Notes: generated from the letters alone by a model not told the origin. A stretch of 64,000 nt of DNA from Chloroflexota bacterium (GCA_047516685.1 JAKZUJ010000108.1:14787-78786); one strand, 5' to 3'; shown: positions 13,762 through 24,600, numbered from the stretch's first letter. Made by a program: numbers and translations.

Positions 13762-15167
13762 CCTGGGCGCAGCGCAACTGGGGCGGCCTGGTCTCCACGT
13801 TTTCACTCGTGGCCGACGTGGTAGCTGTCGGTCTGGCTCTGATTGCGGCCTACTACGTGCGCTATCGCTTTGGCTGGTTCGAGGGAACGCCGCCTAACCG
13901 TTTCCTGTTTCTGGCTCCCGTCACTGTCGCGTGTGCCGCCGCGACCGTGGTCGGCGGTCTGTCACTGGGCATGTATTCGCGCTTTCGGACGGCCGGACCG
14001 GTGGATCGGGTGGCGCGCAGCGCGGGCATGGTCACGATAGGTTCGCTACTCGCGGTCGCGGCCACGTTTTTCGTCTTCACCGACCGCCTGGAACCTGTGC
14101 GAAACGTCATGCCAATGGCATGGCTGCTCGGCATAGTTTTCGTAGCGTTGGGGCGGTCGCTGCTGGCCGCACTCCTTCGGATCCTGGCGCGGCGTGGCGT
14201 CGGCGTCCAACGAGTGCTCGTGATCGGCGCCGGGGCTGAAGGACGCGAGGTCGCCGGTCGCCTGCTCGGGGACCCAAGCCGCCGATATCAACTCATCGGC
14301 TTCCTGGACGACTTTGAGTCTCGCGTATCGGTCGGCGAACGCGAGGCGCCGGTACTGGGCACATCCGCCGCGCTACCGGACCTGCTCTCCGAGCACGAAA
14401 TCGACAAGGTCGTCGTGGCTATTCCGTCGCTCTCACACGACGACCTGCTCGCCATCCTGGCCGATGTTGAAGCGTCCTATGCCGATGTGTGGCTGTTGCC
14501 CGATCTCTTTCAGCTCATGGTGTCTCCGGTTGTTGAAGGCGGGGTCCGCGGGCTTCCGCTGATTGCGGTCAACGAAGTGCGCCTGCGGGGCCTCAGCCGC
14601 TTCACCAAGCGCACGCTGGACATGGTGATGGCCTCATTGGTGCTCGTTGTGGCCTCGGCGCCGATGCTACTTGTCGCCCTCATCATCAAGTTAGACTCCC
14701 GAGGACCCGCCTTTTACGTGCAGACACGCGTTGGACGCGACGGTCGACCGTTTCCAATCGTGAAGTTTCGAACGATGGTCAGCGGCGCCGATGAGTACGG
14801 GCAGACGTGGACCGTGGCCAACGATCCTCGCCGGACTCGCGTCGGACGTTTCCTGCGACGCTACTGGATTGATGAATTGCCCCAATTCCTGAACGTCATT
14901 CGCGGCGACATGAGCCTGGTTGGCCCACGCCCGGAGCAGCCGGACTATGTGGACCGTTTTCGAGGCGAATTCTCCCGCTACATGGTTCGCCACCGCGAGC
15001 GCGCGGGCTTGACCGGCTGGGCGCAGGTCAACGGCATGCGCGGCGACTCGTCGATTGAAGAGCGCACCCGTTACGACTTGTACTACGTGGAAAACTGGTC
15101 ACTGCTCTTCGATTTGCGGATTCTGTTGCGAACGCTGCTGACGGTGATGCGTGGCGATGCGAGCTAG
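13755..15167 (+). CDS. undecaprenyl-phosphate hexose-1-phosphate transferase (WbaP/WsaP-type priming sugar transferase)
   Basis: ORF-track 13545..15167. ATG 13755 (ATGCTGA overlap with upstream stop). Five N-terminal TM helices. C-terminal bacterial sugar transferase domain: RGPAFYVQTRVGRDGRPFPIVKFRTM ... DELPQFLNVIRGDMSLVGPRPE ... ENWSLLFDLRIL. Confidence 0.8.
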   Translation: MLTWAQRNWGGLVSTFSLVADVVAVGLALIAAYYVRYRFGWFEGTPPNRFLFLAPVTVACAAATVVGGLSLGMYSRFRTAGPVDRVARSAGMVTIGSLLAVAATFFVFTDRLEPVRNVMPMAWLLGIVFVALGRSLLAALLRILARRGVGVQRVLVIGAGAEGREVAGRLLGDPSRRYQLIGFLDDFESRVSVGEREAPVLGTSAALPDLLSEHEIDKVVVAIPSLSHDDLLAILADVEASYADVWLLPDLFQLMVSPVVEGGVRGLPLIAVNEVRLRGLSRFTKRTLDMVMASLVLVVASAPMLLVALIIKLDSRGPAFYVQTRVGRDGRPFPIVKFRTMVSGADEYGQTWTVANDPRRTRVGRFLRRYWIDELPQFLNVIRGDMSLVGPRPEQPDYVDRFRGEFSRYMVRHRERAGLTGWAQVNGMRGDSSIEERTRYDLYYVENWSLLFDLRILLRTLLTVMRGDAS

Positions 15168-17952
15168 CGGCCGAGCCTCCCCGGTTTCCCGTCGGTTTCT
15201 CCTGGGCGTCATTGCCGCCGCCACGGCGACCACGGCCTGCGAAATCGGCGGCTTCGGGGGAGATGCCTCGCCAACAGCCGATCCCAGCGCGACAAGCACT
15301 CCGCCACCCTATCCAGCTCCCGTTTCGCAACCGCTACCGCCCCCGGTTCGCCTGCCCGCGTTCATGTCGGACTTTGCCGGCACGGGAGATATTGGGGACA
15401 GCGGCGACGGCGGACCGGCGGTTGCGGCACAGTTTCGCAGTGTCGGCGGGGTCGCGGTTGCTTCCGACGGGGTGATCTATCTGTCCGATCCCAGCGCCAG
15501 TCGTATTCGCCGGATTCGGGCGGGCGGGGTGATCGAGGCACTGGCAGGCACCGGCACGCGCGGTTACGGCGGCGACGGCGGTTATGCCCTCGCCGCGGAC
15601 TTCACCGACCCGACGCGATTGCTGGTCGATCAGGCCGGCACGCTATTCGTCGCCGAGCTGGACCGCGTGCGACGGATCGATGCAGCGGGGCTGGTGTCCA
15701 CGATTCTGGGCGACGGTCATGCAGGCCTGGAAGGCGACGGCGGGCCGGCGGCCTTTGCCAGAACGGCTGGCAACGAAGGCATGGCTGTTGACGGTGAAGG
15801 AAACCTGTTCATCGCCGAACGCGCGGCCAATCGGGTGCGCCGTATCGATACGCACGGCAACGTGGTTACCGTGGTTGGCACCGGCGCCCCGGGGAGCGAC
15901 GGCGACGGCGGACCAGCGCTTTCGGCAACGCTCAACCAGCCGGTCGATGTGGACGTTGACGGTCTGGGCAATCTCCTCATTGCTGAACTGGCCGGCAATC
16001 GGATTCGTCGAGTGTCCACCAGCGGCGTGATCGACACTATTGCCGGTGTTGGCCTCCCAGGCGGGGCCGGTGACGGCGGACCGGCGACCGCGGCTGAACT
16101 CCACGGTCCCCAAAGCGTGGTGGTGGATGCGAGCGGCGCCATATTCGTCGCCGACTGGAACAACCGGCGCATTCGCTGCATTCACCCCGATGGAACGATC
16201 CAGACGGTGGCCGGGCTCGTGGGCGGTCGCGTGGAGTCCGGCGGGCCGGCGCTGGAGTCGCGGCTTACGCTACCGCTCGACATAACGCCAACTCTTGACG
16301 GCAGCTTGCTAGTCGTGGAGCAGGGCGCGCGACGGGTGCGGGCGCTCGTGCCGGCGCCGGGTTCCGAATCGCCACAGCCGGGGACGGACGCCGGGCCCGC
16401 CGGATCCGGGGACACCCAGCAAGCCAACGCTCAGACAGCCCCGTCAGCCTATGTGGCGCCCGCCCCCGCCCTGCCAAGCGGCGCACCGCTTGCCGGCGAC
16501 CTGGTGGCCGAGGTCTTTGCCGGCACGGGTGAATCCGGCAGCGCCGCCGATGGCGAGTTTCGACTGAGCGCCTTGTTTGCGTCGCCGCGCGGGATAGCCG
16601 TCGACAGTGTTGGTCGAATCCTGATCGCCGATACCGGCAACCACCGGATTAGCCGGATCGAACCGGACGGCTCGGTCCGGATCGTGGCTGGAACCGGGGA
16701 ACCGGGTAACGCCGGGGACGGCCAGGCCGCTCGGGCGGCCCAGCTCAACCGTCCATCCGCGCTGGCCGTGGATGCGCAGGGGTCAATCTACGTCGCCGAC
16801 TCGGGCAATTTCCGAATTCGCAAAATCGACCCGGATGGCGTCATCACGACGTTTGCCGGAAGCTCTCAGCCAGGCGTTGCCGGCGACGGCGGGCCCGCGC
16901 GCGACGCCCAGTTCACCGAACCAAGCGGCCTGGCCCTGGGTTCTGACGGCTCATTGTTTGTAGTGGATGCGCCGGTTCATCGTGTGCGCGTGATTCGACC
17001 TGATGGCGTTGTCCGTGCTTTTGCGGGCAACGGAGTTGATGGGCTGGGCGGCGACGGCGGGCCGGCGGCAGAGGCCACGCTCGGTTTCCCACAGCGAGTC
17101 GCGGTCAACGCGGACGGATCGGTGCTCGTCACCCAACTCCAGGCGGGCGTGGTTCGTCGCATCGGTCCCGACGGGATCATTGAAAGCCTGGCCGGGTCCG
17201 GCCGAGCCGAGGCCCCGACCGAGGGTCCAGCCCGCGAGGTGTCGCTTGACGCCCCGATCGGCGTCGCGGTGGACACGGTTGGCGCTGTCTATGTGGCAGC
17301 CAGTGGCAGCGGCCAGATCACCCGAGTCGACCCGGGCGGGCACGCCCAGGTGATTGCCGGCAACCCTCTGGGCCAGGGCCAACCCGGGGGGCCGGCTCGT
17401 GATATCCCACTGTTCACGTCGATTGACATTGCGTTGGGGCGGGACGGAACGGCCTACCTGCTGGAGGCCCGCGGGCTCATCTGGCGGATCAGTTCCACGA
17501 CTCCAGGCGTCGCGCCCGGAGCGACCCAGCCGCCAGACGGGCTCACGCCGACGCCAACGTTAACCCCAGCCCTGGACGTTGGAGCTAACGAATCGGCCGG
17601 GGCCGCCAGCGTGGTACTGACCCTGCAGCTTGGGCCGGGGCAGGAACCGATCCAGCCAACGCTCACGTTCCACCCCGGCGAACGTGTGAACGTGTCGATT
17701 GAATTCGTGGATGTGGCGCAGGGATCGCGCCTCGGAATCCGCTGGTTTGCGGGCGACACGCTGCAGGGAACGTTCCTGACCGATCCGCAACCGGCGTACA
17801 ACAGGGCGCGATTCGGCTTCTGGTTTGGTCTGCCGCCCACGGCCGCCCCCGGTCCCTGGCGGGTTGAGATTTTGGTCGGCTCCCGGGCAATTGCTTCCGT
17901 GGACTTCGTGGTGACTGCCGGCGAGGTCCGCGTGACGCCGCCTTCGGCATAG
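15151..17952 (+). CDS. NHL-repeat double beta-propeller lipoprotein (933 aa)
   Basis: Tat-like signal SRRFLLGVIAAATATTAC with lipobox. About 12 NHL repeats (GDGGPA ... P.G.A.D..G.lyvAD..N.RIRRI) in two groups, separated by a Pro/Gln-rich linker. C-terminal ~150 aa beta-rich domain. GTG 15151 / ATG 15157. Confidence 0.7.
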   Translation: MAMRASGRASPVSRRFLLGVIAAATATTACEIGGFGGDASPTADPSATSTPPPYPAPVSQPLPPPVRLPAFMSDFAGTGDIGDSGDGGPAVAAQFRSVGGVAVASDGVIYLSDPSASRIRRIRAGGVIEALAGTGTRGYGGDGGYALAADFTDPTRLLVDQAGTLFVAELDRVRRIDAAGLVSTILGDGHAGLEGDGGPAAFARTAGNEGMAVDGEGNLFIAERAANRVRRIDTHGNVVTVVGTGAPGSDGDGGPALSATLNQPVDVDVDGLGNLLIAELAGNRIRRVSTSGVIDTIAGVGLPGGAGDGGPATAAELHGPQSVVVDASGAIFVADWNNRRIRCIHPDGTIQTVAGLVGGRVESGGPALESRLTLPLDITPTLDGSLLVVEQGARRVRALVPAPGSESPQPGTDAGPAGSGDTQQANAQTAPSAYVAPAPALPSGAPLAGDLVAEVFAGTGESGSAADGEFRLSALFASPRGIAVDSVGRILIADTGNHRISRIEPDGSVRIVAGTGEPGNAGDGQAARAAQLNRPSALAVDAQGSIYVADSGNFRIRKIDPDGVITTFAGSSQPGVAGDGGPARDAQFTEPSGLALGSDGSLFVVDAPVHRVRVIRPDGVVRAFAGNGVDGLGGDGGPAAEATLGFPQRVAVNADGSVLVTQLQAGVVRRIGPDGIIESLAGSGRAEAPTEGPAREVSLDAPIGVAVDTVGAVYVAASGSGQITRVDPGGHAQVIAGNPLGQGQPGGPARDIPLFTSIDIALGRDGTAYLLEARGLIWRISSTTPGVAPGATQPPDGLTPTPTLTPALDVGANESAGAASVVLTLQLGPGQEPIQPTLTFHPGERVNVSIEFVDVAQGSRLGIRWFAGDTLQGTFLTDPQPAYNRARFGFWFGLPPTAAPGPWRVEILVGSRAIASVDFVVTAGEVRVTPPSA

Positions 17953-20826: not shown

Positions 20827-21182
20827 CTGCCGCCTCATCCGCGAGCGACTGCATCTTCTGCGCCATCGCCCGCGGCGACATACCTAGTGATCAGGTCTAT
20901 GCGGACGACCATGTGGTTGCCTTCCGCGACATCAACGCGCAGGCGCCGACGCACATACTGGTCGCCCCTCGTCGGCACGTGGCGAGCGTGGACGCGCTTA
21001 GCGACGATCAAGAGTTGCTGGGTCGGGTGATGGCCGTCGCGGTAACGGTGGCGCAGGCCGAGGATCTCGCCGAGTCCGGCTATCGGCTCGCGACCAACCA
21101 CGGTCGCGACGGAGCACAGACCGTTCCGCACCTGCATGTGCACGTGCTGGGAGGTCGAGCGTTGAGTGGCCAGCTCGGCTAG
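20823..21182 (+). CDS. HIT-family (histidine triad) nucleotide hydrolase
   Basis: ORF-track 20745..21182 is an upstream extension. GTG 20823 (GTGA overlap with prmA stop). CIFCAI motif. Histidine triad HLHVHVLGG. Confidence 0.8.
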   Translation: MTAASSASDCIFCAIARGDIPSDQVYADDHVVAFRDINAQAPTHILVAPRRHVASVDALSDDQELLGRVMAVAVTVAQAEDLAESGYRLATNHGRDGAQTVPHLHVHVLGGRALSGQLG

Positions 21183-21309
21183 CGTCAGTCCGGCTATCGC
21201 TCGGCATGCAGGCTGCGACCGCGGTTCAATGGGTGATCCAACGAATCCATCGGTCAGCCGTTCGAATTACGACTGCATTGCGTCAGCGGCTATGACGCCG
21301 CACTGTGTG

Positions 21310-21318
21310 TGGTATGAT
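21310..21318 (+). promoter_or_regulatory. candidate extended -10 promoter element TGgTATGAT in the rpoB upstream region
   Basis: TGGTATGAT at 21310-21318. AT-rich island in high-GC DNA. An alternative TTACGA-N18-TATGAC lies at 21267-21296. Confidence 0.3.
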
Positions 21319-21383
21319 GCCGACAACGTGGGAGTGTCCGAATAGCCGCGCGGCCGCGACTCAATTGAATAGCCGTAACCCAT

Positions 21384-21410
21384 CCGGTGCGTGCACCGGT
21401 TGGGTTTTTG
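21384..21410 (+). terminator. candidate intrinsic terminator/attenuator hairpin with T-tract
   Basis: CCGGTGC-gt-GCACCGG perfect 7-bp inverted repeat at 21384-21399. Followed by TTGGGTTTTTG. A U-run this long is rare in this GC-rich sequence. Confidence 0.35.
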
Positions 21411-21441
21411 CGCCTTGTGGAAAAAAGGGCACCTTGTCGAA

Positions 21442-21477
21442 AACGGATGTGACGCGGTCAATAACGGATGTGACGCG
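21442..21477 (+). promoter_or_regulatory. tandem direct repeat 2 x AACGGATGTGACGCG (21-nt period), candidate transcription-factor site in rpoB leader
   Basis: Identical 15-mers at 21442-21456 and 21463-21477. Each contains a TGTGA core. Confidence 0.3.
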
Positions 21478-21656
21478 CTGACGCAGCATTTTCTTCAGGT
21501 TCTGGTGACGCCCGTGGGTTGCGCGCGTTGGCCCACTGCGTCAAGTCAACCGTCCCACGTCTGGCTATACGTAGGCACAGGCGCCGTGCGCCGTCGCGGC
21601 GGCTTTTCCGGCCGCTGTCGATTCCTCTCGCCGGGGCACGAAGGAGCAGGCGATTC

Positions 21657-24600
21657 ATGATTTCAAACGGCACGAATTCGAGCTTCCCCGAACGGTCCTA
21701 CGGAAATGCGCCCAGCATCCTCGAGATGCCGCACCTCGTCTCGACGCAGATCGAGTCGTTCGAACGGTTCAGGAACGAATACCTGCGGGAACTGTTCGCC
21801 GAGATTTCGCCCATTCAGGACTTCACCGGGAAGAACCTCGAACTCCACTTCGAAGTGCCGGACGACGCGTTCGACCAGCCGAAGTACAACGAAGAAGAGT
21901 GCCGCGAGCAGGACCGGACCTATCAAGCGCCCCTGCGAGTGAAGGCGCGTCTGCACAACAAGCAGACTGGCGAGATCAAGGAAATGGTCGTGTACATGGG
22001 TGACTTCCCGCTCATGACGCGCCAGGGAACATTCATCTACAACGGGGCTGAGCGCGTGGTTGTGAGCCAGCTCATGCGCTCGCCCGGCGTCTACTTCTCA
22101 GCCGAGAGCGACCCTTCGACCGGCCGGCGCCGCTTCGGCGCCAAGCTCATTCCGAAGCGTGGCGCCTGGCTGGAGTTTGAGACGAGCAACCAGTCCATCA
22201 TCAACGTCAAGATCGACCGCAAGCGCAAGCTGACGGTTACCACATTCCTGCGCGCCATTGAACCGAAACTGGGCGAGGACGCCGCGCTGGTGGAGGCGTT
22301 CGCCGACGTGGACAGCGATCCGGAGCACCGCTACATCGAGTCGACCATCGGTACTGCCGAGAGCCGTCGCGATCTGGCTTTCAGCACGGAAGACGGCCTG
22401 ATTGAGCTGTACCACCGGCTGCGCCCGGGCGACCCGGCTACGGTTGACAACTCGCGCTCGCTCATCGAGCAGACCTTTTTCAACATTCGTCGCTACGACC
22501 TGGGACCCGTCGGGCGCTACAAGCTCAACAAGCGCCTCGGTCTCGAGACCGAAGAGACCACGCGCACGCTCCAGCCAGCGGACCTGGTGGCCATCGTGCG
22601 CGAGATCGTTCGCCTCAACGTCACGCAGGGCATTCCCGATCACATCGACCACCTGGGCAACCGTCGCGTGCGCGCCGTCGGCGAGCTCCTGGCTGATCAG
22701 TTCCGCGTCGGTCTGCTGCGCATGGAGCGCGTGATTAAAGAGCGGATGAGCATCCAGAACGCCGCTGAAGCCACGCCCTCCGGGCTTATCAACACCCGGC
22801 CGGTGACCGCCGCGGTCAAGGAATTCTTTGGCGGGAGCCAACTGTCGCAGTTCATGGATCAGGCCAACCCGATGGCGGAACTCGCCCACAAGCGGCGGCT
22901 TAGCGCCATGGGGCCGGGCGGCCTCTCGCGCGAGCGCGCCGGATTTGACGTGCGCGACGTGCATTACAGCCACTACGGGCGGGTTTGTCCCATCGAGACT
23001 CCTGAAGGCCCGAATATCGGCCTCATTAACACGCTCGCGACGCTCGCGCGGGTGAACTCCTATGGCTTTATCGAAACGCCCTACCGTCGCGTGATCACGC
23101 GCGTGCCAGCCACGGACGCCGCCGGGCTGGTTGGCCGCTCGGTGGCCGAAGCCTTCGGTTCTAACGGCGAAGGCGAGCCATTGGCGCAGGTCGGCGATGT
23201 GATTGACGAAGCCCTCGCGGCGGCTATTGGCCAGGTTGAGGGCGGCGACAAACTGGATGTTCGCATCCGTCCAGTGGTCACGACCGAGATCGAATACCTG
23301 GCCGCGGACGAAGAAGAGCGCCACACGATTGCCCAGGCCAAGACTCAACTGAATGCGAAGAGCGAAATCGAAGTGGACCGAGTCTCGGTTCGCAAAGGAC
23401 CGAACTTCTACGAGGCGGACGCGGCTGATGTCGAGTATCTGGACTCGTCCCCGCAGCAGATTGTCAGCCTGGCGACGGCCATGATTCCGTTTCTCGAACA
23501 CGACGACGCCAACCGCGCGCTGATGGGCGCCAACATGCAGCGGCAAGCCGTTCCGTTGATCAAGCCGGTGGCCCCACTGGTGGCCACGGGCATGGAGAGA
23601 GTCAGCGCGCGCGACTGCGGGCACATGGTACTGGCCGCTGCCGGCGGTCAGGTGACCCGTACTACCGCTCGTGAGATCGCTGTCGACCAGGGCGATGACG
23701 GCGGGGAGCGCATCTACCGGCTACGTAAGTTCGAGCGATCCAACACCGCCACGTGCATCAGCCAGCGGCCAGTTGTGGCCATCGGCGACCGCGTGGAGGC
23801 CGGGCAGGCGATCGCCGAGAGCATGGCCACGGCCGACGGCATGATCTCGTTGGGCCAGAACATCGTGGTCGCGTTTATGTTCTGGGAAGGCGGGAACTAC
23901 GAGGACGCCATTGTCGTCAGCGAGCGTTTGCTCAAGGACGACGTGTTCAGCTCCATTCACATCGAGAAGTACGAAGTCGAGGCTCGCGACACGAAGTTGG
24001 GGGCTGAGGAGATAACGCGCGACATTCCAAATCAGAACGAGGAGGCCCTGCGAAACCTCGACGACACCGGCGTCGTTTACGTTGGAGCCGAGGTCGGACC
24101 CGACGACGTTCTGGTCGGAAAGATCACGCCCAAGGGTGAAACCGAACTCTCGGGCGAGGACCGCCTGCTCCGCGCCATCTTTGGACGCGACGCGCGCGAA
24201 GTGAAGGACACGTCGAAGCACGTGCCGGCCGGCGAATATGGCCGCGTAATTGACGTCCGCCGATTCTCGGCCGAGGCGGGCGACGACCTTCAGGCCGGTG
24301 TGACCGAGATGATCCGGGTCAGCGTTGCCTCGAAGCGCAAGCTGATGGTCGGCGACAAGATGGCCGGCCGCCACGGCAATAAAGGCGTGATCTCGATGAT
24401 CCTGCCTGAAGAGGACATGCCCTACCTGGCGGACGGCACTCCGGTTGACATCATTCTCAACCCTCTGGGCGTCGCGTCCCGCATGAACGTGGGGCAGACG
24501 TTGGAAACGCACCTGGGCTGGGCCGCCGACAAGCTCGGCTTTCGCGCCATTAGCCCGGTGTTCGACAGCGCGGACGAGGACGACATTGCGGCCGCGCTCG

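Follow-up and report, generated by a model that had tools for sequence, protein, structure and literature searches.

Control by bacteria of their own RNA polymerase level is understood mainly in E. coli, in which rpoBC lies behind ribosomal protein genes and the rplL-rpoB attenuator, a terminator-like hairpin located before rpoB. Leader RNAs of rpoB have also been catalogued in Lactobacillales (PMC2864571) and Rhodobacterales (PMC5737381): Rfam 15 includes Lacto-rpoB (RF01709) and Rhodo-rpoB, which are lineage-restricted conserved structured RNAs at the rpoB 5' region of phyla other than Chloroflexota, and which are presumed to be cis-regulatory, without a known ligand (PMC2864571, PMC5737381). 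In mycobacteria, rpoB-rpoC is preceded by a long conserved upstream region with two promoters, of which the upstream promoter modulates expression (PMC6181997); earlier literature on the E. coli region is cited in that paper. We analyzed a 64-kb stretch of DNA (64,000 nt; hereafter, the window) from an uncultured Chloroflexota bacterium and suggest, with moderate confidence, that the gap upstream of its rpoB contains the rpoBC promoter and a 5' leader of ~330-333 nt, which acts as a lineage-specific structured cis-regulatory RNA. The leader is similar to Lacto-rpoB and Rhodo-rpoB in that it is a lineage-restricted structured RNA before rpoB, but it differs from both in phylum and in architecture, combining a promoter-proximal block with two GAAUAG motifs, a terminator-like hairpin, and a second invariant block within ~330 nt. 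With the mycobacterial region it shares a long conserved regulatory stretch before a free-standing rpoB-rpoC operon; unlike that region, however, the Chloroflexota gap has one recognisable conserved promoter, and its conserved elements would be transcribed and are partly structured.

The gap, in which all features described below lie on the plus strand, extends for 474 nt from the stop codon of the HIT gene (21182) to the rpoB ATG (21657). The gene order determined by Pfam is NHL-repeat protein, GrpE, DnaJ, PrmA, HIT, the gap, RpoB, and RpoC. The initial annotation of this DNA had described rpoB as preceded by a long non-coding gap rather than by rplKAJL, and this was borne out, with grpE, dnaJ, prmA, and HIT being the upstream genes; each feature that it had listed was likewise found where it had been placed. 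Just upstream of grpE, positions 15151-17952 encode a 933-aa NHL-repeat/teneurin-like beta-propeller protein. The RpoB N-terminus was 92% identical to that of another Chloroflexota metagenome-assembled genome (L001), 87-89% identical to those of four others (L002-L005), ~70% identical to those of L006-L009, and ~60% identical to those of Ktedonobacteria and others. A search with the 119-aa HIT protein gave ~35 HIT clusters at 75-98% identity, and further loci with the same synteny were obtained by looking up some of these clusters. Eleven distinct leaders, which we call type I (window, L001-L005, L086, L088, L092, L094, and L098), represent species-level relatives and were aligned with a mean column identity of 73%; in L001-L005, the distance from the first conserved block to the ATG is 295 nt. 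The collection also includes a same-species copy of the locus (L100) and more distant versions, namely L084 and L085 (78-79% RpoB identity) and the "type II" loci L087, L090, and L091. Altogether, the leader module was located directly upstream of rpoBC in more than 15 related loci. In L095, L096, and L097 (HIT protein P0126), what follows HIT is not rpoB but a gene for a solute-binding protein on the opposite strand, and therefore the grpE-dnaJ-prmA-HIT-rpoB synteny is not universal in the clade. In L084 (1480-2090), the contig of which is a low-coverage long-read assembly, a gene beginning MALRVALFIDHHNVYRGA, whose product is presumably NYN/LabA-like, is inserted between HIT and the rpoB leader, and the leader has remained with rpoB rather than with HIT.

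The rpoBC promoter (21290-21318) consists of a weak -35 region and an extended -10 element, TGGTATGAT (21310-21318). The initial annotation had pointed to this AT-rich extended -10, and conservation in every relative indicates that it is real: TGnTAnnnT occurs without exception in the type I, intermediate, and type II relatives as well as in L007-L009, and TTGRNN occurs 16-17 bp upstream of it in the relatives. A scan with a strict sigma-70 consensus flagged no promoter, the extended -10 included. In a six-row alignment, the closest sequences differ at most aligned positions in stretches located mostly upstream of the promoter; strong conservation begins 6-8 nt past the -10, which is the position where the transcript would begin, and continues for ~100 nt. 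Judging from this onset, transcription probably starts near 21324, so that the transcript would have CAACGUGGG (21324-21332) at its 5' end, and this segment would also serve as the 5' strand of a long-range closing helix with a duplex partner at 21554-21563. A second possible promoter had been proposed near the ribosome-binding site, but the alignment of relatives contains no conserved promoter between the hairpin and rpoB, and inspection by eye for sigma-70, ECF-type, and sigma-54-type promoter patterns around the second block revealed nothing convincing. The A-run GGAAAAAAGGG, also noted before, is present in the window but private to its species and not conserved in relatives.

Directly after the putative start lies the conserved 5' block (21333-21376), which consists of GUGUCC, a first GAAUAGCCG (21340), a GC mini-hairpin GCCGCGCGGC (21344-21353), CGCGAC, CAAUU, and a second GAAUAGCCG (21367). 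This block is nearly invariant across the 11 type I leaders, with indels of 1-3 nt occurring just upstream of it, at the 5' G-run. The conserved stretch of ~100 nt reads CAACGUGGGGGUGYCCGAAUAGCCGCNCGGCYGCGAGNCAACUGAAKAGYY, followed by a hairpin (hairpin B) and then by GYGCCUUGYG. The duplicated 9-mer GAATAGCCG reported earlier was confirmed at 21340 and 21367; two occurrences are mildly unusual, being reached in 4 of 100 shuffles, and for the first block no second instance of its 26-nt core exists. The AAUA...hairpin...AAUAG arrangement was also found in L085, L087, and L090. UAAUAGC and GGAUGU seem to us to resemble the L11/L10-binding region of 23S rRNA, with the order of the elements reversed.

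Such conservation could also be expected of an ordinary long 5' untranslated region, in which hairpins stabilise the mRNA or have no regulatory role, and in which similarity would stem from the sampling of relatives that have diverged little, together with constraints on the promoter and the ribosome-binding site. This explanation does not easily accommodate the contrast between the near-invariance of ~100 nt past the start and of the 24-nt second block, on the one hand, and the stretches mostly upstream of the promoter, on the other. Nor does it account for the covariation of hairpin B, or for an architecture that persists at 78-80% RpoB identity despite diverged sequence. In its favor are the findings that the folding energy of the leader is not better than that of shuffled sequences, that two-sided covariation is absent from most helices, that a 5'-terminal helix is a classical stabiliser, and that the leader sequence is fully changed in the next clade, L006-L009. 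On balance, a plain untranslated region is unlikely.

Hairpin B (21377-21406; AACCCAUCCGGUGC and GCACCGGUUGGGUU) has a predicted stability of -19 to -21 kcal/mol and occupies the same place in relatives. The initial annotation had recognized a perfect hairpin followed by a T-run; both are present, but the hairpin is longer than had been claimed, with 14-nt arms (21377-21390 and 21393-21406) that contain one U-U mismatch and are followed by TTTTTG. Changes on both sides were found at 4 of 10 pairs, with 99% of cells paired, and the examples include CCGGUGC/GCACCGG versus CCGAUG/CAUCGG and a basal A-U replaced by G-C in L094. Because of these compensatory changes, hairpin B is regarded as a selected structure, and the alignment of relatives, which had been recommended as a check, thus revealed a conserved hairpin. 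L084, L085, L087, and L090 also have a hairpin at this place, between ACCC and GGGU, but its stem differs in sequence. For the whole fold model, none of 500 shuffles reached the observed covariation score or the observed count of cells changed on both sides, although the comparative set consists of 11 mutually related type I sequences and shuffle controls therefore overstate the significance. The hairpin is followed by a conserved 3' flank, GCGCCUUGUG (21411-21420), which is kept in type I as GYGCCUUGYG and may supply the 3' strands of helices enclosing hairpin B. This flank is compatible with pairing to the upstream CGCGAG and GCCR (96% of cells paired), almost exclusively with one-sided changes, and the pairing is lost in type II.

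Hairpin B forms the stable GC-rich stem-loop of an intrinsic terminator, and its terminator-like tail is the U tract UUUUU (21406-21410): among all runs of at least five T on both strands of the 64 kb, the run at 21405 follows the strongest hairpin. UUUUU is present in the window, L001, L086, and L092, and UUUUC in L098; the tails of type II (L087 and L090) and of L085 are U-rich, and type II has in addition an upstream A tract. Of 15 homologues, 4 have a degraded tract or none, with UUACUG (L002), UGUCUG (L003), CUGCUG (L094), and GUAUUG (L084) in its place. Since the U tract is not conserved, attenuation cannot be the universal function of hairpin B or the sole reason for its retention. A regulated or partial terminator at hairpin B is nevertheless plausible in the window genome and many relatives. 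A consistent antiterminator alternative was not found in folds of the nascent RNA, in which pairing between the 5' GGGG and the stem's ACCC was weak and inconsistent. The earlier proposal of a cis-regulatory or attenuation module for rpoBC is therefore reasonable as far as the conserved promoter and hairpin and their association with rpoBC are concerned, and does not extend to a conserved U tract. The analogy that had been drawn with the E. coli attenuator holds for the position of the terminator-like hairpin and for its possible effect on the level of rpoBC transcription. It fails for sequence and family, neither of which is shared; moreover, rplL is not upstream, and the Chloroflexota rpoBC has its own promoter rather than being located behind rplKAJL, with a U tract that varies among relatives.

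The same promoter and hairpin had been suggested to delimit an independent small RNA of ~80-90 nt. Such an RNA would be ~87 nt long, from 21324 to ~21410, and rpoB would then be expressed via read-through or from an unrecognised promoter. Consistent with this proposal are the conserved promoter and 5' region, the UUUUU that follows a strong hairpin in the window, L001, L086, and L092, and the A tract, hairpin, and U tract of type II, which are typical of efficient terminators. It fits poorly, however, with several observations. The U tract is lost in L002, L003, L094, and L084; the sequence directly past the hairpin is conserved (GCCUUGCG and the second block); and the 5'-terminal 10 nt of the leader have their predicted partner ~230 nt downstream, 140 nt beyond the hairpin. 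Because of these three features, a stand-alone 87-nt RNA is unlikely. There is, in addition, no conserved promoter between hairpin and rpoB, and the only place where the element was seen is directly before rpoB, with one copy in the 64-kb window and no other credible match in the related loci searched. For a trans-acting small RNA, conservation would be confined to the interval from promoter to terminator, and the terminator would be conserved; neither was found here, and we judge this explanation distinctly unlikely.

A leader peptide is a further alternative, because a stop-free frame (...CCG AAT AGC ... CGC TGA; 21338-21481 in the window) runs through hairpin B and ends in the second block, so that translation might open up the terminator in the manner of pyrBI-type attenuation. 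In 10 of the 11 type I leaders, 39-40 codons lead without a stop to a shared TGA, and the open stretch of the window amounts to 47 codons; the length differences of the window and L088 inside the frame are net multiples of three, and third codon positions are more variable (24/33) than positions 1 and 2 (31/64). An open frame across a terminator-like hairpin is indeed what pyrBI-type leader-peptide attenuators have, but the Chloroflexota frame differs from them in having no conserved start codon, no conserved Shine-Dalgarno sequence or other ribosome-binding site, and no protein-level constraint. Potential start codons are located within the -10 element, ahead of the putative transcription start, and 5 of the 11 type I leaders (L002, L004, L086, L088, and L094) contain no in-frame start for an ORF of at least 35 codons across the first block. 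Furthermore, the window is frameshifted over 13 codons relative to the others, and, with a synonymous fraction of no more than 37% and 24% in the two segments, there is no synonymous excess such as a small protein would have. In type II, every frame that runs across the hairpin lacks a start codon, and gene callers predicted no gene there in six related loci. A leader peptide is thus highly improbable; a conserved small protein, which the initial annotation had named as one of the findings that would overturn its view, was looked for and not found, in agreement with a non-coding gap.

The second invariant block, block 2 (AACGGATGTGACGCGCTGACGCAG, 21463-21486), was identified in the type I alignment. 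It is invariant in 7 of the 11 leaders and contains a core, CTGACGCAG, that is present in all 11; the variation in L088, L092, L098, and L094 affects the 5' half only. In the window, the identical 15-mers AACGGATGTGACGCG reported before are present at 21442 and 21463. They are the core of a 21-nt tandem duplication (GTCGAAAACGGATGTGACGCG and GTCAATAACGGATGTGACGCG; 21436-21456 and 21457-21477), the two copies of which are identical at 19 of 21 positions; the exact 15-mer occurs nowhere else in the window, and a search allowing three mismatches gave nothing beyond background. The duplication, by which the 5' half of block 2 comes to be present twice, is a variant specific to this species: the relatives have a single copy, and the only other leader with two copies is that of the same-species L100. 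This independent assembly from another sample, ENA ERZ28763718, is 99.66% identical over 5.4 kb, with a leader without differences, duplication included. The duplication is thus not an assembly artefact, and is real and fixed in the species. The gaps of the window and L100 differ at three positions only (21221, 21223, and 21267), all upstream of the promoter; the identity of the 351 nt from the -10 to the ATG is not significant at an overall divergence of 0.34%.

These repeats had been described as operator-like, and block 2 and the duplication may be explained alternatively as transcription factor sites on the same face of the DNA helix, forming a roadblock or operator downstream of the rpoBC promoter. 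Block 2 is invariant in sequence without compensatory variation and contains the direct repeats GTGACGCG, CTGACGCAG, and TGTCGCAG, and the two copies in the window lie exactly 21 bp apart. TGACGC is enriched 12-fold in the gap, which with seven copies has the densest cluster in the window, although most copies are species-private. In L094, moreover, 6.6 copies of a 21-nt unit starting with GATGTG are located upstream of the rpoB promoter. The single copy in relatives speaks against conserved tandem operators, as neither the repeat number nor the spacing that would be shared by operators or iterons is maintained, and a spacing of 21 bp follows from the tandem duplication as such. Within block 2, L088, L092, and L098 have a changed 5' half and L094 has lost it, whereas the 3' half is retained; a conserved complement of this 3' half lies ~45 nt downstream, as an RNA helix would explain. 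No further copy of block 2 was found beside another gene in the 64 kb. A DNA-level operator is accordingly considered unlikely. The tandem copies of L094 (3274-3413; unit ATGTGTCCAGTTTTGCGGGTG) were also seen in L093, and they lie ~110-250 nt upstream of the rpoB promoter within an insertion of ~660 nt, in which there is also a long palindrome (about 2897-2955). The unit shares its 21-nt period and its GATGTG start with the duplicated unit of the window, and contains GTGTCC, which is found in the leader at about +10; the 5' half of block 2 is degenerate in L094.

In the structured-leader reading that we favor, block 2 is one strand of an RNA helix. RNAalifold predicted pairing of GCUGACGC (21477-21484) with GCGUUGGC (21525-21532), and the helix between GCUGACGC and GCGUYGGC, ~45 nt apart, was found in the alignment fold of 9 of the 11 leaders with one-sided, wobble-compatible changes only; GCGTC has a constant position in relatives. 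A duplex search and compensatory changes identified CCCACGUCUG (21554-21563) as the segment that would form the 3' strand of the closing helix by pairing with the 5' end. In 7 of the 11 type I leaders, the best partner of the 5'-terminal CAACGUGGGG lies 101-113 nt before the ATG; the corresponding partner is the best one, at -118, in L087 and the second best in L092. Changes on both strands that keep the pairing occurred in L088 (CAUCG with AUGGUG) and in L092/L098 (CGAC with GUCG). Close to the gene, the alignment fold predicted a local hairpin, UCC-UC-UCG ... CGA-A-GGA (21623-21646), which holds the Shine-Dalgarno sequence AAGGAG (21641-21646) upstream of the rpoB ATG at 21657; it is kept in most sequences with changes on its 5' side only, and the ribosome-binding region GAAGGAGCAGGCGATTCATGA is nearly invariant.

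We also tested a fuller model that adds a 5' mini-hairpin, the GC hairpin between the two GAAUAG motifs, and two helices enclosing hairpin B via GCCUUGCG. In this model 96% of cells were paired, versus 29-50% with the partners slid; outside hairpin B, the changes were almost all one-sided, and the enclosing helices were absent in type II. Pairing of GCCUUGCG with CGCGAG or with CGCGCGGC constitutes two alternatives, neither of which holds in type II. In folds, the start-codon region was also paired with block 2 or with GAAUAG, a pairing that was dropped because the sole variants, L092 and L098, did not covary with it. Helices other than hairpin B and, in part, the closing helix were thus either invariant or changed on one side only. 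The folding energy of the whole leader was no better than that of shuffles (z = +0.34 for the window and -1.55 for L002), thermodynamic z-scores being uninformative in this GC-rich RNA, and hence the case for structure rests on comparison and not on thermodynamics.

A covariance model of the leader detected one copy in the window at 105 bits, with the next match at 12 bits. Its best matches in distant relatives lay right after the rpoB promoters of L090 (E=0.002), L087 (E=0.08), and L085 (E=0.25), and it found nothing in L006-L009; an alignment built from covariance-model matches was discarded, as it was polluted by reverse-strand hairpin matches. An nhmmer profile of the leader gave no match in 75 other Chloroflexota rpoB loci, so that, judged by sequence, its occurrence is restricted to a narrow clade. 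In a metagenome scan, the 20-mer GGATGTGACGCGCTGACGCA matched three times only, each time by chance inside unrelated coding DNA. At 70% RpoB identity, L006-L009 retain the HIT-rpoB synteny and the extended -10, and their leader sequence is entirely different. In L007 (3661-4000), L008, and L009, the extended -10 CTGCTATACT is followed by a leader of ~330 nt with a sequence unlike that of the window, which holds GUGGGGGUGUC and UUUGAACGGCGUUAGCUGAUCCGCC, resembling the 5' block and block 2 of the window; on the basis of these motifs, it may be a rearranged homologue of the window leader.

The covariance search of the leader against Rfam, which had been recommended as a further check, gave no family match. 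No tRNA, tmRNA, or Rfam family was found in the window. The Lacto-rpoB (RF01709) and Rhodo-rpoB models had no match at the gathering score in the window, none at E<=10 in 21100-21750, and none at E<=1 in five relatives, and other Rfam families likewise had no gathering-score match in the window and none at E<=1 in the five relatives. The L10 leader (RF00557) did not match, and rplJ-rplL are not upstream. The only weak Rfam match was that of sul1 RNA (RF03058) at 21577-21640, with 22.6 bits (E=0.077), below the gathering score of 36.2; this sub-threshold match spans a pair of GC-rich hairpins that immediately precede the ribosome-binding site, and sul1 gave no match at E<=1 in five related loci. 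As far as sequence comparison can indicate, the leader is specific to a clade of uncultured Chloroflexota, is absent from Rfam, and appears as a new lineage-specific rpoB leader motif.

On the model proposed here, transcription would start near 21324, and hairpin B with UUUUU would halt a fraction of polymerases near 21406-21412 in the window genome, which would constitute promoter-proximal attenuation. The read-through RNA would close its first ~230 nt by pairing of the 5'-terminal CAACGUGGG with CCCACGUCUG, and block 2 would pair with GCGUUGGC. With the ribosome-binding site held in a local hairpin, output may also be set at the level of translation or mRNA stability. The signal might be RNA polymerase supply, an elongation factor, or else some protein or ligand that binds the GAAUAG-containing 5' block. 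We tentatively raise the possibility, itself somewhat doubtful, that the 5' block (CAACGUGGGGGUGYCC-GAAUAGCC-hairpin-GAAUAG) and hairpin B form an aptamer-like sensor that chooses between stop and read-through, with RNA polymerase, an elongation factor, or a nucleotide-type signal as its ligand. If true, this sensor would represent a third, structurally unrelated class of rpoB riboregulator and would provide direct feedback on RNA polymerase synthesis where rpoBC is uncoupled from the ribosomal protein genes.

With its covarying hairpin and its two invariant blocks, the leader offers a defined element of ~330 nt for tests in vitro, and it would amount to a new kind of biology only if a specific ligand or a polymerase-sensing mechanism were demonstrated. 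As a third unrelated rpoB leader, in uncultured and partly sponge-derived Chloroflexota, it supports the view that many lineages have evolved their own RNA-based control of rpoBC.
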